From the UHGV virus genome UHGV-0038968: DNA of 32,947 nucleotides. One strand, written 5' to 3'. The notes beneath the pieces were generated by a model. It worked only from the letters and a program-made list of their open reading frames with translations, was not told the DNA's origin and ran no database searches. Origin of the DNA: a virus. Both the position numbers and the translations under genes were made by a program. Shown one piece after another: positions 3,870 to 23,071 of the stretch. Position 1 is the stretch's first letter. Each line of letters begins with the position of its first letter.

Positions 3870-4948
3870 CAGAACGGGTCCTCCTGTACTCTGGCTTTTT
3901 TCTTTTTCCGCGCGCCGGGGGCTTCGGGTTCAGGCAGATAAGCATCAGGTGGGCCGACACGGATTTCCGTCAGGGTGCCGTTCTGGTCCTGAGTAAACGT
4001 GACTTCCGAAACAAGCAGTTCGGTATTGTCGAAACCACAGACCGGATCAAAGACAATCACCCGCTGGTTGGGCTGCCACAGCGTACCGTTACCCTGTCGC
4101 CAGCCCTGCACCACATAGGTGGTTTCATCCGTCCGCGCCGCCCGTTGTCTGGCTTCAAAGTCCGCACGGGCAATACAGCCTGCCCCCGTAGCCTGCCCTG
4201 TCTGCCTGATATACATCGGACGGTAACGGGCAATAAATGCGTCCTCTGTGCGGGCCCGCAGCGCGGTGGTGGTGGCCTCACCGAAATCATCGTCGTTTCC
4301 GGCACGCTGCCCCGCCACCTGGTAAACAGAAAACCGCTCCCGGATACTCTTCTCCGTATCGCAGGAAAGGATGTTTTCCCCGAGTACCAGCGCAGTATGT
4401 GCCCGCGTTGAGCCAATACCGCCAATCACCAGCCTGCCGTGCGGGTCGTCGTAAGCCAGTGCCTGCTGCTGACCGAGTATTTTGTTGATTACCTCAATCA
4501 CCGTTTCACCGTGATCAGGCTGAACATCAGGAATAACACCCGACGGCGCACCGCTGTTCACCACCTCAATGCCGAAAGGCGCAGCAAGCGCCTGCGCAAT
4601 CTGCACCAGCGAGCGTCCGTTAAACTGTGTCGGTTCGGCTGCACAGTCAATCAGGTCAGCCGTCAGACTACGTCCGGCAATACCGGTGCTGACCGAACGG
4701 GCATCGTAACGAACGGGAGTCGCCTCCACCCAGCCGGTGATCACCAGCTCATCACCAATCAGCACTTCCACTTTTGAACCGTTTTTAATGCGCGGCTGAA
4801 GCGTGGTGATACCCTCATCTCCCGGCCACTGGCGAGTGATCTCCACACTGAAATCCCGCGCCAGCCGTTCAATACCGGCACCGATGCGCACCGATGTCCA
4901 GCCATTCCACTCCCGGCCATTTACCCGTAGCGTGACATTGTCGTTCAT
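3869..4948 (-). CDS. Tail protein, Mu gpP (gp44)-like baseplate hub
   Basis: 359 aa; follows the DNA-circulation gene as in Mu. Confidence 0.65.
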   Translation of the reverse strand: MNDNVTLRVNGREWNGWTSVRIGAGIERLARDFSVEITRQWPGDEGITTLQPRIKNGSKVEVLIGDELVITGWVEATPVRYDARSVSTGIAGRSLTADLIDCAAEPTQFNGRSLVQIAQALAAPFGIEVVNSGAPSGVIPDVQPDHGETVIEVINKILGQQQALAYDDPHGRLVIGGIGSTRAHTALVLGENILSCDTEKSIRERFSVYQVAGQRAGNDDDFGEATTTALRARTEDAFIARYRPMYIRQTGQATGAGCIARADFEARQRAARTDETTYVVQGWRQGNGTLWQPNQRVIVFDPVCGFDNTELLVSEVTFTQDQNGTLTEIRVGPPDAYLPEPEAPGARKKKKARVQEDPF

Positions 4949-18876: not shown

Positions 18877-19233
18877 TCACTTGAGCCGCTCACGCGCGGT
18901 CTTCGCTGCGTGACACGACCAGCACAGGCTTTCAAGGTTGCTGTCTTCATCAGTACCGCCGTGGGCCTTCGCCTTGATGTGGTCCACGCAGGACGCCTGC
19001 TTCACTATCGCCTGCCGTAGATGGTTCTGACACAGCCCTTTGTCGCGCTTAAGTATCCGCTCCCGGATGACTTCCCACTTTGTTCCGTATCCTCGCTGCT
19101 GCCGTGATTGACCAGGCTTGTAGGACTTCCAGCCTTCACCTTTGTGATTTTCACAGTAGCCAGATGGGTCTGTTGTGGTGTTGCGACAGCCGCGAACACG
19201 GCAAGCCTTTGGTGTGCGCGGTGGCATATTCAC
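18877..19233 (-). CDS. HNH endonuclease (packaging-associated)
   Basis: 118 aa with Cys/His pairs (CRVRGC...C..H, H...WSCH); adjacent to terminase as in HK97-like phages. Confidence 0.8.
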   Translation of the reverse strand: MNMPPRTPKACRVRGCRNTTTDPSGYCENHKGEGWKSYKPGQSRQQRGYGTKWEVIRERILKRDKGLCQNHLRQAIVKQASCVDHIKAKAHGGTDEDSNLESLCWSCHAAKTARERLK

Positions 19234-19290: not shown

Positions 19291-19494
19291 CTAATCGTCG
19301 AGTTGCAATACACCGTGCTCAAGTGACTCTGAGTAAGCGATCAGCCCTGTGTATTCAGGGATAATCTCGCCATCATCCGCTTCGAACTCCGGGATTGTAC
19401 CAGTGGTGATGGTGTATTGGGGCTGACCATCTTCTTTCGCGAATGCTGCTAGGTCTTCAATCTGCTTAGCTGTAAGAACTACTGTCATGCTCAT
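19291..19494 (-). CDS. Small acidic hypothetical protein
   Basis: 65-67 aa, Asp/Glu-rich; GAGGT upstream of the second in-frame ATG. Confidence 0.45.
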   Translation of the reverse strand: MSMTVVLTAKQIEDLAAFAKEDGQPQYTITTGTIPEFEADDGEIIPEYTGLIAYSESLEHGVLQLDD

Positions 19495-19552
19495 ACCTCA
19501 GTTGTTAAAAAGCCCCGCTATTGCGAGGCTATGATTGACTAAAGTGATGCTG

Positions 19553-19828
19553 TCAGGTGTGGGTCCAAATGAATTTAACAATCCCAATAATGCTAGCCAG
19601 AACGCCAAAACCAAAAATAAATTGACCACATACCCCTATGATTCCCGATGCAATGGCACCGGCATTTGTCTGAGCATTTTCGTTTATGCTCGCCCCCACT
19701 AGATACATAATCAAACCAACTATGAGAGATGCGATAATCCAATGTTCCACTGCTAATACAATTACAATGCTCAAAATATCTGCTAAACCATCACTATGAC
19801 CACTCACTGCATATCCTTGCTTTGACAT
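19553..19828 (-). CDS. Small hydrophobic membrane protein (91 aa), unknown function
   Basis: Two to three predicted TM segments (ILSIVIVLAVEHWIIASLIVGLIMYLVGA, GIIGVCGQFIFGFGVLASIIGIV); visibly AT-rich. Confidence 0.55.
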   Translation of the reverse strand: MSKQGYAVSGHSDGLADILSIVIVLAVEHWIIASLIVGLIMYLVGASINENAQTNAGAIASGIIGVCGQFIFGFGVLASIIGIVKFIWTHT

Positions 19829-19894
19829 TTGAAAAATTCATCACTGGATTATAATTGTTTACACCCTTCATAGTCGTTCGAATATGATAAAAAA

Positions 19895-20431
19895 TCAATT
19901 GTGGGGGATAGCGTTATTTGACTCTCTCAACGAGTCGTAAATACGTTCACACGTCATCCCGGCGGTGTAGCGTTCGTCAGCGATTCCAGCATAACGTTTA
20001 GCTTCTGCTGCAATATCTCCGAGCATGTCGGCGAACATTCCGGCGTCGGCGTCGGTTGTTTTGCTTCGGACGGCAGCGGCAAGATCAGCGGTGTGCTTTG
20101 CGGCGTCCAGGCGTGCGGCAAGCTTTGTTGCTTCGGTACGCAACTGGCTAACAGTGGCAGACAGGCCAGCAGCAGTGGCAGCAGATTTAGCGGCTTGTGC
20201 TTGTGCATCTTTTACAGCCTCATCACGGGCAATTATGCGCCCTTGTTCAATCCAGCGTGCGGCAGTCTGCGCGTTCGCTTCCTGTGAAGATTCCATGCTA
20301 TTGTGGTCAGCCCACTTCTTTTGCCAGCCCCGCTCACTCCAGATGTTCCCGACAAGAAATGCACCAGCCAACATCAGCAAAACAATGATTGTTTTCCACC
20401 GCGCCTGAACAAAAGCAAAGACCGCTGTCAT
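19895..20431 (-). CDS. Rz-like i-spanin
   Basis: 178 aa; N-terminal TM ([14 protein letters not shown]) then Ala/Gln-rich coiled-coil-like region; follows the endolysin with 4-nt overlap. Confidence 0.7.
19954..20208 (-). CDS. Rz1-like o-spanin lipoprotein, embedded in Rz in an alternative frame
   Basis: Signal-like stretch with lipobox LLASC followed by a Pro-rich mature region; true start may be an internal codon. Confidence 0.55.
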
Positions 20432-21045
20432 ACCAGCAACGCCGCCCGCGCTTTGTTATAACGACTATTTCTGTCAGCCAGTCCATTCTGGCCACCGTTG
20501 ATGATCTGCGTTACACGGACAACATCACCTGAATACATCAGACAACCACGTAATGTGAAATACCATGCAGCAGAACGGGCTGCATGTTTCTCCTGTGTCA
20601 GCAACTCTGGTGTGCTGATCAGATCCAACTTCAGCGCCGCACCGCATTTGGCGTAGTTCTCGCGGCCGGTGATTTGAAGCAGGCCACGACCGCGATATTT
20701 CCAGCCGTCACCCTGGCTGTTATTCCCCATGCGGTCACCATAAACCAGATTGGCTATTTGCGGCTGGTGGGCTACCTGCTTACCATCGACACGCCCCAGC
20801 ATTTCACACTGATAAGGCGTCAGGCGTTTACTAAAGGTTTTCTTCAGCCCGTCTACCGAGTAGTTGAAGCTTTCCACCAGCGAGGTAAAACCAGCAGATT
20901 CATGCCCAACTTGTGCAATGAACATGGCCTGATCGTTAACTGCTGTGATTCCAAACTCTTTCATTGCAGCATCAATGTGCGGAAACCAGCGCGCAGCCAG
21001 CCCGGCGCTAATACCAGCCGCCTTTTGAAATAATTGTTGGTTCAT
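20428..21045 (-). CDS. Endolysin, glycoside hydrolase family 19 (chitinase-like lysozyme)
   Basis: 205 aa; resembles the GH19 endolysins annotated as putative chitinase in enterobacterial prophages; flanked by holin and Rz. Confidence 0.8.
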
Positions 21046-21326
21046 TAGTGCCTCAGATGATCAACCAGACGTGCAACGTTGCCTCTGACGGCCACCAGCA
21101 CGGAAAGAAAAATAGTGTTCGCCACGATAATGGGCCATGAGGAATGGGGATAAATCCCACAGAGATAGGCCAACGGAACAGCACTGTATGTAACAGTAAT
21201 CAGCCAGGCTAAACGTGAAACCCAAGGACGATGCCGCGAATCACCACGACGATAAAACATCAGAGTAATAACAACACAAGCACATAACAGCGCATTTATA
21301 GTTGCTGTCGGGTCATTTAGCTCCAC
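21045..21326 (-). CDS. Holin or antiholin-like membrane protein
   Basis: 93 aa; two to three hydrophobic helices; between the first holin and the endolysin. Confidence 0.5.
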   Translation of the reverse strand: MELNDPTATINALLCACVVITLMFYRRGDSRHRPWVSRLAWLITVTYSAVPLAYLCGIYPHSSWPIIVANTIFLSVLVAVRGNVARLVDHLRH

Positions 21327-21699
21327 CTGAACCTCCCCGGCGCGTTATGAGCGCCACCAGCGAGCCGATATCCTGATTATTCAGGAACGTCAGGATTTTA
21401 ACGGCTAAAGCAGAGACGATTACGGCACCAATAGCATCCAGAGGTTTATCACTGTATCCGGTCAAGTTCGCCAGCTTGGAGCCAACCAACCCAGAGCAAA
21501 GAATCCCGGCAATATATGACACGATAAAATATGCCAGTCGGCGCGATGCACTCAGATCTGCAGCTGTTGCTATGTAGAATACAGCCCCTGCAAATGCGCC
21601 AAATACAACGCCGTAATCAGTTCCGGTCAGCAGTCCATAAACACTGGCACCCGTCAGGGCACCACCAGCCAGCCCAGTACCGGAAATCGGATCGGACAT
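21313..21699 (-). CDS. Putative holin
   Basis: 128 aa; Gly/Ala-rich TM helices, basic C-terminal tail (RRGGSGGAK); first gene of the lysis cassette. Confidence 0.6.
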   Translation of the reverse strand: MSDPISGTGLAGGALTGASVYGLLTGTDYGVVFGAFAGAVFYIATAADLSASRRLAYFIVSYIAGILCSGLVGSKLANLTGYSDKPLDAIGAVIVSALAVKILTFLNNQDIGSLVALITRRGGSGGAK

Positions 21700-21789: not shown

Positions 21790-22386
21790 TTAAGATAAAC
21801 TTTGATTGATATACTCATGACACCCAAAAATAAAGGCGTTTTGTGCATCAATAAATGACTTTTTTTCTTCCGGAGTAAAATACCCTTTTGTAAAACATAC
21901 TTTTAGCGCTTTTTGAAGATCTGCCGTCAGGGTTATCAACTTACAACCTTCCTCATCAGGCCTTATTAATAGAAGTAATTTATTTTTACTTATTTCAGCG
22001 GCCTTTATTGGAACTTGAATCTCCTCAGGGAAAACACCCTTAGCCAATATATCCATATTCTTATTTCCGACCAGATGCCATTGCTCAAATGTGCTGGCCA
22101 ACATAATTACGTCTGTCACATGCTCAGCGCCAGCAAAACGTATTTGTTGCGCCAATTCTTTATTAGTATTCAAGTGAGCCTGTAATGTGGCTAAGGCAAA
22201 ATTTTCTTTGATTGCCCTGTATGCAACCCAACCAGTTATTCCTGCGGCAATAACGCCTGCAAGAGCAGTAATGAGTGTTTCAAAAGGAAAGGAAGAACTG
22301 ATTTCAATTGGCGGTAATTTTTCTATTACCAAGGTCAACTCGCCAGTAGTTTTTTCGAAAGCGTACGGTACGTTTTGCCAAGTCAT
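21790..22386 (-). CDS. Hypothetical single-pass membrane protein (moron between Q and lysis genes)
   Basis: 198 aa; one TM helix (ITALAGVIAAGITGWVAYRAI) after a ~35-aa N-terminal segment; AGGAGG 6 nt upstream of the ATG; visibly AT-rich; no family recognised. Confidence 0.65.
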   Translation of the reverse strand: MTWQNVPYAFEKTTGELTLVIEKLPPIEISSSFPFETLITALAGVIAAGITGWVAYRAIKENFALATLQAHLNTNKELAQQIRFAGAEHVTDVIMLASTFEQWHLVGNKNMDILAKGVFPEEIQVPIKAAEISKNKLLLLIRPDEEGCKLITLTADLQKALKVCFTKGYFTPEEKKSFIDAQNAFIFGCHEYINQSLS

Positions 22387-22492: not shown

Positions 22493-23071
22493 TTAAGCAC
22501 TTTCTTGCTCACTCTGCAACTTAAATCTGTCGCTATTTGTGCCGAATGCGTCACAAACTGGAGCGTACAGGATCGATTCTGCAAGACTTAGCCAAGTGTC
22601 AATGCGTCGACGACAGGTGATCAGCGGCCAGTCAGGATGTTTAGCCTGCAGTTCATTGGCCATCTGCAACTTGCTCTTACGAAGACGATACCGGTCAACA
22701 ATCACGCTATAGAGCGATCGGTAGTCATCATTCATCAGTACTGAAGCAATGACACCGTCCACTAACAACCCTTCTTCATCTGAACAGAACGCCAGGCCGC
22801 TTTTATTTTTGCTGTTGAGAATTTCACGCAGGTACGCTTCAAGTTCAGGCTTGGTGATACCCGCTATCTTCATCCGGCGTAGCGCTTCATTGATAGCTGT
22901 CTTGGTGATTTTCCCGGATGCCAGAAGCTGGTTAAACATGTTTCCACCACTACCACCGCCGATATAAGACCAGCGGCCCCACATGCGCAACTTGCCTTGT
23001 ATCCAGATACTTTCCAGAGTACGAAGGCGAACCATTTCACCTGATTTGCCAACTTCAGAAGGATTAATCAT
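22493..23071 (-). CDS. Late-gene antiterminator Q-like protein
   Basis: 192 aa; position directly upstream of a short terminated leader and the lysis cassette; translation resembles lambdoid Q family proteins. Confidence 0.7.
   Translation of the reverse strand: MINPSEVGKSGEMVRLRTLESIWIQGKLRMWGRWSYIGGGSGGNMFNQLLASGKITKTAINEALRRMKIAGITKPELEAYLREILNSKNKSGLAFCSDEEGLLVDGVIASVLMNDDYRSLYSVIVDRYRLRKSKLQMANELQAKHPDWPLITCRRRIDTWLSLAESILYAPVCDAFGTNSDRFKLQSEQESA

Follow-up and report, generated by a model that had tools for sequence, protein, structure and literature searches.

Two small genes that RefSeq lists as hypothetical proteins occupy the interval that separates lysis cassette and packaging genes in a lambdoid/HK97-like E. 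coli prophage. One codes for a membrane protein and the other for a strongly acidic protein, and their position raises the question of what they are, whether they act together and what each of them might do. The DNA analysed here is the virus genome UHGV-0038968 with its full 32,947 nucleotides, referred to as the window.

Layout of the locus

A preliminary description, made from the sequence, had placed two small ORFs between the lysis cassette and the HNH/terminase genes, and this is where they were located. They are encoded on the minus strand without overlap, at 19553-19828 (91 aa in the longest form) and 19291-19494 (67 aa in the longest form). The same arrangement is present in 10 complete E. 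coli genomes with 99.4-99.7% identity. In the 5' to 3' order of the minus strand, the region is composed as follows:

22493-23071, minus strand: Q-like antiterminator
21790-22386, minus strand: AT-rich 198-aa ORF
21313-21699, minus strand: Phage_holin_8 gene
21045-21326, minus strand: Phage_holin_3_7 gene
20428-21045, minus strand: GH19 endolysin gene
19895-20431, minus strand: Rz i-spanin gene, DUF2514 (Pfam E=1e-41), the upstream boundary of the slot
19954-20208, minus strand: Rz1 lipoprotein ORF inside the Rz gene, with an LLASC lipobox
19538-19894, minus strand: AT-rich block of 357 bp (spacer, -10 box and membrane gene)
19848-19853, minus strand: candidate -10 box TATAAT, conserved in relatives
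19553-19807, minus strand: membrane-protein gene in its probable extent, 84 aa, GTG start (phrog_28582)
19507-19530, minus strand: terminator-like hairpin AGCCTCGC-AATA-GCGGGGCT and T run (fold, conservation)
19291-19488, minus strand: acidic-protein gene, 65 aa and stop (phrog_9518)
18877-19233, minus strand: HNH endonuclease gene (Pfam HNH, E=2.2e-10; RefSeq, identical prophage), the downstream boundary of the slot

The HNH gene is followed on its 3' side by a P27-family small terminase (TerS) and then the large terminase (TerL).

Coding properties of the two genes

The acidic protein consists of 65 aa and begins with ATG at 19488, with GAGG 7 nt upstream; the RefSeq start is identical. With 14 D/E against 2 K/R, a pI of 4.05 and a net charge of -12, it is as small and as strongly acidic as had been described. 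It matched phrog_9518 over its full length (E=1.7e-40) and is 95.5% identical to gp53 of mEp390 and 54% identical to gp56 of N15. Net charges between -7 and -13 were calculated for 53 members of the family, and the acidity is kept in the 54%-identical N15 branch, which is without the acidic EADDG loop. Given this conservation down to 54% identity, the charge is a selected property. In the AlphaFold2 model (pLDDT 72.7), a helix (residues 7-20) is packed on three strands, and no Foldseek neighbour of this model was found in BFVD or PDB at E<=0.001.

The membrane protein probably has 84 aa and starts with GTG at 19807 rather than being 91 aa long. RefSeq and the longest ORF place its start at ATG 19828. 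The shorter form is favoured because the homologues have 84 aa and share a start position that aligns with GTG 19807 (L005 and L008 types with ATG, L010 with GTG; L numbers designate loci), because AAGGA lies 6 nt 5' of this GTG, and because ATG 19828, a codon that is ATC in L010, is without a Shine-Dalgarno sequence. An AlphaFold2 model from an alignment of 18 sequences showed a two-helix hairpin (H8-51 and H55-90, pLDDT 83), in agreement with two hydrophobic spans in the protein. In the family, helix 1 keeps a Glu-His-Trp motif, the turn is polar (INENAQT), helix 2 is rich in glycine, and KF(I/V/L)W is conserved at the C-terminus. Of the 91-aa polytopic membrane protein described before, the assignment to the membrane was therefore upheld, whereas the length has probably to be reduced to 84 aa and the many passes to a two-helix hairpin.

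A deviant, AT-rich composition had been ascribed to both genes. This is true for the membrane gene: its GC content is 0.41 (GC3 0.34) and that of the spacer preceding it 0.27, compared to 0.52 in the window as a whole and 0.54-0.59 in the Rz, HNH and terminase genes on either side. It is not true for the acidic gene, which with a GC content of 0.485 does not stand out from the Q and lysis genes nearby (0.48-0.54). Pairwise comparison with diverged relatives, with synonymous sites near saturation, gave a dN/dS of 0.025-0.10 for the acidic gene and of 0.06-0.27 for the membrane gene. Both are thus real coding genes under strong purifying selection. Both ORFs were found to be conserved as well as coding, and neither was shown to be a lysis accessory.

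Some copies of the membrane gene are frameshifted (P0018, P0021 and L024) at T runs in ATTTTTGGTTTTGG, which corresponds to about 19600-19625 on the minus strand of the window. They run into an overlapping 43-aa frame and give products of 95-109 aa with a different hydrophobic C-terminus. These frameshifts could be homopolymer sequencing errors or real variants. The overlapping 43-aa ORF (19498-19629) was also considered as a separate gene and dismissed, as it had no family match and is the alternative frame of the frameshifted variants.

A terminator-like hairpin between the two genes

The hairpin at 19507-19530 folds at -21.1 kcal/mol (z -5.65) and is located immediately 5' of the ribosome-binding site of the acidic gene. 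It was found 5' of the acidic gene in all fetched loci but four (L012, L056, L074 and L098), behind at least 10 different upstream junctions with at least five spanin types and several endolysin types, and homology between loci breaks at its 5' edge. The stem is kept via paired changes in L023, in L100/L105 and in the L005 type. The N15 record annotates the hairpin as a putative rho-independent terminator. With these properties it resembles an intrinsic terminator and probably ends the transcription unit of the lysis genes and the membrane gene. Since it is the boundary where different modules join in the slot, the hairpin can usefully guide searches for cargo genes.

The interval from the T run to the Shine-Dalgarno sequence of the acidic gene is too short for a promoter, and the gene is thus probably a late one dependent on read-through. 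Starting directly behind a terminator, it does not look like a moron expressed in the lysogen.

Two other structural signals were obtained in this region. An outer helix pairing the Shine-Dalgarno sequence of the acidic gene with upstream sequence was present in the fold of the window, but it was discarded as it is absent from the folds of other loci. A sub-threshold match to Rfam STnc100 (17.9 bits compared to a gathering score of 47, E=0.39) covers 19500-19593 on the minus strand, where the membrane gene ends and the hairpin follows; the terminator hairpin alone probably accounts for this match.

The membrane gene as an AT-rich insert

The block 19538-19894 is absent in mEp390, Nissle 1917, QEC11-421, SaltyDalty and N15, in which the hairpin is situated directly 3' of the spanin genes. 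Megablast homology with mEp390, Nissle 1917 and QEC11-421 begins at position 357-359 of the query, i.e. at 19536-19538 of the window, and the insert is bounded by the stop codon of Rz on one side and by the 5' end of the hairpin on the other. Within the block, a TATAAT is located at 19848-19853, about 40 nt 5' of the GTG start. The box reads TATAAT in the window type and in the L005, L008, L010, L023 and L025 types, and TATACT in L026/L027. It is kept in all distinct post-spanin loci examined, while the surrounding AT-rich spacer has diverged. A consensus promoter scan called nothing there because no good -35 is evident. The box is a candidate -10 element of the membrane gene's own promoter, the activity of which is predicted from its conservation. 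The stop codon of the membrane gene is followed by a hairpin approx. 20 nt downstream in every post-spanin locus with downstream sequence. After this hairpin, a T run is found in the window, L010 and L023, and a weak one in the L005 type.

With its deviating base composition, its presence in some relatives and absence from others, the conserved -10 box and the terminator, the membrane gene has the layout of a moron, and judged by these features it is a rare moron in a known variable slot. The 357-bp block would have entered between the stop codon of Rz and a terminator hairpin that was already there, and this resident hairpin would now terminate the membrane-gene transcript. The membrane protein may accordingly be made both in the lysogen and late in infection.

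The family of the membrane protein is tiny, with 21 clusters in 5.8 billion proteins. The protein matched phrog_28582 over its full length (residues 1-91 of 91, E=3.5e-54). An exhaustive profile search with the family alignment against 1.84 billion representatives resulted in seven matches, two of which are repetitive proteins, and neither 50,697 phage records nor 72,556 plasmids contained a match. One relative with 43% identity is encoded in the tail/baseplate module of a myovirus, which argues that the membrane gene moves independently of lysis genes.

Independent distribution of the two genes

Whether the two genes act together had been left open before. Joint action is not supported by their distribution: 77 of the fetched loci contained the acidic gene only, 11 the membrane gene only and 20 both, and these 20 are near-identical and all of the window's prophage type. 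Among E. coli genomes, both genes were found in 10, while 26 of the 36 with the acidic gene have it alone, in other lysis cassettes, where it immediately follows the spanin genes. In relatives of the membrane gene from Enterobacter, the acidic gene is missing and the next ORF is one of 106 aa, one for a GvpU-like protein or one of 485 aa. The 485-aa ORF, 3' of the membrane gene in L010, has the size of the glycosyltransferase of mEp390. L023 has a membrane gene with 97.6% identity, then the hairpin and then sequence similar to that located 3' of the membrane gene in L010, again without the acidic gene. Given this independent distribution, the two genes do not act together; they are independent mosaic modules and no functional pair.

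The same data bear on the suggestion that the membrane protein acts in abortive infection or addiction as a toxin depolarising the membrane, with the acidic protein as its antidote. Adjacency in the window would fit, and so would the small, very hydrophobic protein with its glycine-zipper-like hairpin and conserved intramembrane Glu-His pair. However, the genes co-occur in one prophage lineage only and are otherwise found each alone, a terminator lies between them, and PADLOC retrieved no match. Moreover, a constitutively promoted toxin without linked partner, as it would be present in the Enterobacter loci, is unlikely. A toxin-antidote pair is thus very improbable.

Taken together, an arrangement of two independent modules in a variable slot, the first being the membrane moron and the second the hairpin with the late acidic gene, seems somewhat probable to us. 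The second module would consist of the terminator hairpin and a 65-aa cytoplasmic acidic alpha/beta protein, the gene of which would be transcribed only by read-through of the hairpin, i.e. by Q-antiterminated late transcription.

Distribution of the acidic gene and variability of the slot

The acidic family comprises 295 clusters from Citrobacter, Enterobacter, Kluyvera, Leclercia, Klebsiella, Morganella and E. coli and was found on 256 IMG/VR stretches. Its members include N15 gp56, mEp390 gp53 and proteins of phage SaltyDalty and a Klebsiella phage. Only 36 of 5,426 E. coli genomes contain the gene, and many closely related phages are without it. The protein is >90% identical across genera, with non-homologous phage neighbours. 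In most loci, the acidic gene is the first gene after the spanin genes, which belong to several unrelated types. The lysis cassettes on its 5' side contain GH19, GH24 or lysozyme endolysins, and the small terminases nearby are of the P27, DUF1441 and Terminase_2 families. In L056 and L074, it is located without the hairpin in the head-tail module after a DUF4054 gene.

On the 3' side of the acidic gene, 38 different gene clusters were counted in 84 non-identical loci, the commonest being HNH (17 loci); the slot is thus hypervariable. The region between lysis and packaging genes had been proposed as a recurrent cargo site, and this comparison of the slot, together with the moron features of the membrane gene, agrees with the proposal.

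Further small genes and remnants were noticed in this slot. In L060, a DUF2514 Rz gene has left a 47-aa relic of its 3' end (4236-4379) directly 3' of the acidic gene, with intact Rz/Rz1 upstream and a cspA-like cold-shock gene after the relic. The relic, seen in one of 13 loci sharing that upstream junction, is a recombination scar in the slot. Zinc-ribbon ORFs of 54-57 aa with a CxxC...CxxC pattern lie between the spanin genes and the hairpin in L090 (3770-3934, plus strand) and L060 (3686-3859, minus strand) and are another recurrent small cargo. In the Nissle 1917 prophage (L003, 3319-3933), the gene after the acidic gene is on the opposite strand and encodes a protein of 204 aa without Pfam match, which is possibly prophage cargo.

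Another variable position is occupied in the window by the 198-aa ORF (21790-22386, minus strand), which lies between the Q antiterminator and the holin with a GC content of 0.38 (GC3 0.33). It matched phrog_18859 (E=7e-91) and had no Pfam match. The otherwise near-identical prophage of E. coli KSC1031 has two different genes (89 and 264 aa) in its place. The slot between Q antiterminator and holin is where Stx phages carry their toxin genes.

Possible functions of the membrane protein

Neither of the two proteins nor any of their aligned members had a Pfam or NCBIfam match, and the PHROG matches were without functional annotation. PADLOC gave no match for either protein at E<=1 and none for the aligned members, and neither protein matches any solved or viral fold. 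In the literature, no study on the N15 gp56/mEp390 gp53 family or on these post-lysis morons was found. For the membrane protein, a search of all of Pfam gave no match at E<=1, and thus none to known superinfection-exclusion families; among its 18 aligned members it gave noise only (e.g. DUF4064, 0.025).

The membrane protein would protect the lysogen at the inner membrane, for instance by superinfection exclusion through blocking of DNA entry. This reading is favoured by the moron layout, the mobility between phage modules and the persistence of the gene where prophages are rearranged: L025-L027 have an intact copy in a region with a truncated Rz and fragments of glycosyltransferase genes. 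We regard protection of the lysogen at the membrane, e.g. as superinfection exclusion, as a real possibility, which we infer from these features and put forward as tentative.

Since most membrane-gene loci share the holin type Phage_holin_8 plus Phage_holin_3_7, a modulator of lysis has to be considered as well. The protein would then be an accessory (antiholin-like or a timing modulator) of the Phage_holin_8/Phage_holin_3_7/GH19 cassette and be co-transcribed with it upstream of the terminator. The gene indeed lies inside the lysis transcription unit, 5' of the hairpin, and for most of the family the genes on the 5' side are spanin genes of cassettes in which these two holin families are also encoded. 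Small size, location at the lysis cassette and two transmembrane helices, with a predicted topology that is probably N-in/C-in, are also shared with class II holins and pinholins such as S21. However, the protein ends with KFIWTHT and is without the charged C-terminal tail typical of holins, no holin or antiholin was matched in Pfam or PHROG (the best holin PHROG had E=0.35), and two holin-family proteins are already encoded in the window's cassette. Phage mEp390 has the same cassette without the membrane gene, L025-L027 keep the gene without that cassette within 4 kb, and the above-mentioned relative is encoded in a tail/baseplate module. The gene's own conserved -10 box additionally suggests expression outside the lytic programme. 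A role as lysis accessory is therefore unlikely, and protection of the lysogen is the reading that we prefer.

Possible functions of the acidic protein

The acidic protein would bind a conserved host component late in infection, be it a protein of host defence, a nuclease or some other factor of the host. A host partner is favoured over a phage partner because the protein is highly conserved while its phage neighbours are non-homologous. Binding of such a host component is the mode of action that we consider most likely for this protein, though we put it forward as tentative.

Its near-constant position after the spanin genes could, instead of host targeting, reflect a function linked to lysis. 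In this case the protein might be a late accessory of lysis or of virion morphogenesis, for example a chaperone-like or timing factor. Its place as first gene behind the spanins in most loci, the copies of L056 and L074 in the head-tail module and the predicted late expression would all be consistent with such a factor. But the endolysins, spanins and small terminases around it belong to non-homologous families, its identity of >90% across hosts leaves no single phage partner that it could serve, and its absence from many closely related phages and from all but the 36 E. coli genomes speaks against an accessory as well. A late accessory therefore has a small chance of being right.

For a small acidic protein, DNA mimicry is another reading, and it had been suggested for this gene before. 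As a DNA-mimic anti-restriction or anti-nuclease protein, it would be of the kind of Ocr, ArdA, T7 gp5.9 or Ugi. Like T7 Ocr and gp5.9, ArdA, Ugi, phi29 p56 and SAUGI, it is small and has a negative charge conserved in its family, but significant similarity in fold or sequence to these proteins is lacking. Anti-restriction proteins are usually early genes, which counts against the host-defence reading in general, and in contrast to the early-expressed DNA mimics the acidic gene is predicted to be late. A DNA mimic is rather improbable.

Homologues of the acidic gene were also matched on 32 plasmids, and records of about 47 kb from Enterobacter carry it as annotated gene. The copy on Klebsiella IncFII plasmids (L108, 6990-7190) is a relic without start and with a premature stop. 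It lies near repA, flanked by queH and by a small gene with TonB-family annotation, and is not a gene of the leading region. The sequence upstream of it is the version found in the Klebsiella phage, and the relic has become fixed on many conjugative Klebsiella plasmids. The plasmid matches were therefore set aside as support for anti-restriction, as the Klebsiella IncFII copy examined is decayed.

The most far-reaching version is unlikely: in it, the gp56 family is a new class of late small acidic inhibitors of a conserved host defence or nuclease protein, held by the terminator hairpin at the end of lysis cassettes in Enterobacterales prophages, and the 84-aa protein represents a new family of exclusion or membrane defence. 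If either of the proposed activities were true, a new small anti-defence or exclusion family would be at hand. As prophages of Enterobacterales frequently contain the acidic family (295 clusters, with Nissle 1917 and N15 among the carriers), assigning its function would annotate many genomes.

Comparison with known systems

The proteins T4 Imm, HK97 gp15 and P22 SieA/SieB are small inner-membrane proteins of superinfection exclusion. The membrane protein of the window is similar to them in size, hydrophobicity, two predicted transmembrane helices and plausible expression from the prophage, but has no sequence relationship with any of them.

The morons of lambdoid phages, reportedly defined by Juhala, Hendrix and colleagues, include lambda bor and lom as well as HK97 gene 15. 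Like the membrane gene, they are extra AT-rich genes in the late region, lie between neighbours that are adjacent in relatives and have a terminator; they also have a promoter of their own, which for the membrane gene is putative. Lambda bor even shares the slot with the membrane gene. However, bor encodes a lipoprotein on the opposite strand, whereas the membrane gene is oriented with the late operon and uses the resident terminator.

The variable slot itself is already known, and annotations of the acidic family, which is widespread, go back to N15. In its present state, the finding amounts to a correct description of two hypothetical genes as cargo of a known variable region. N15 gp56 and mEp390 gp53 belong to the same family as the acidic protein of the window, and their genes have the same position after the spanin genes and the same upstream terminator hairpin; compared to N15 and mEp390, the window contains the membrane gene as an additional gene 5' of this hairpin.
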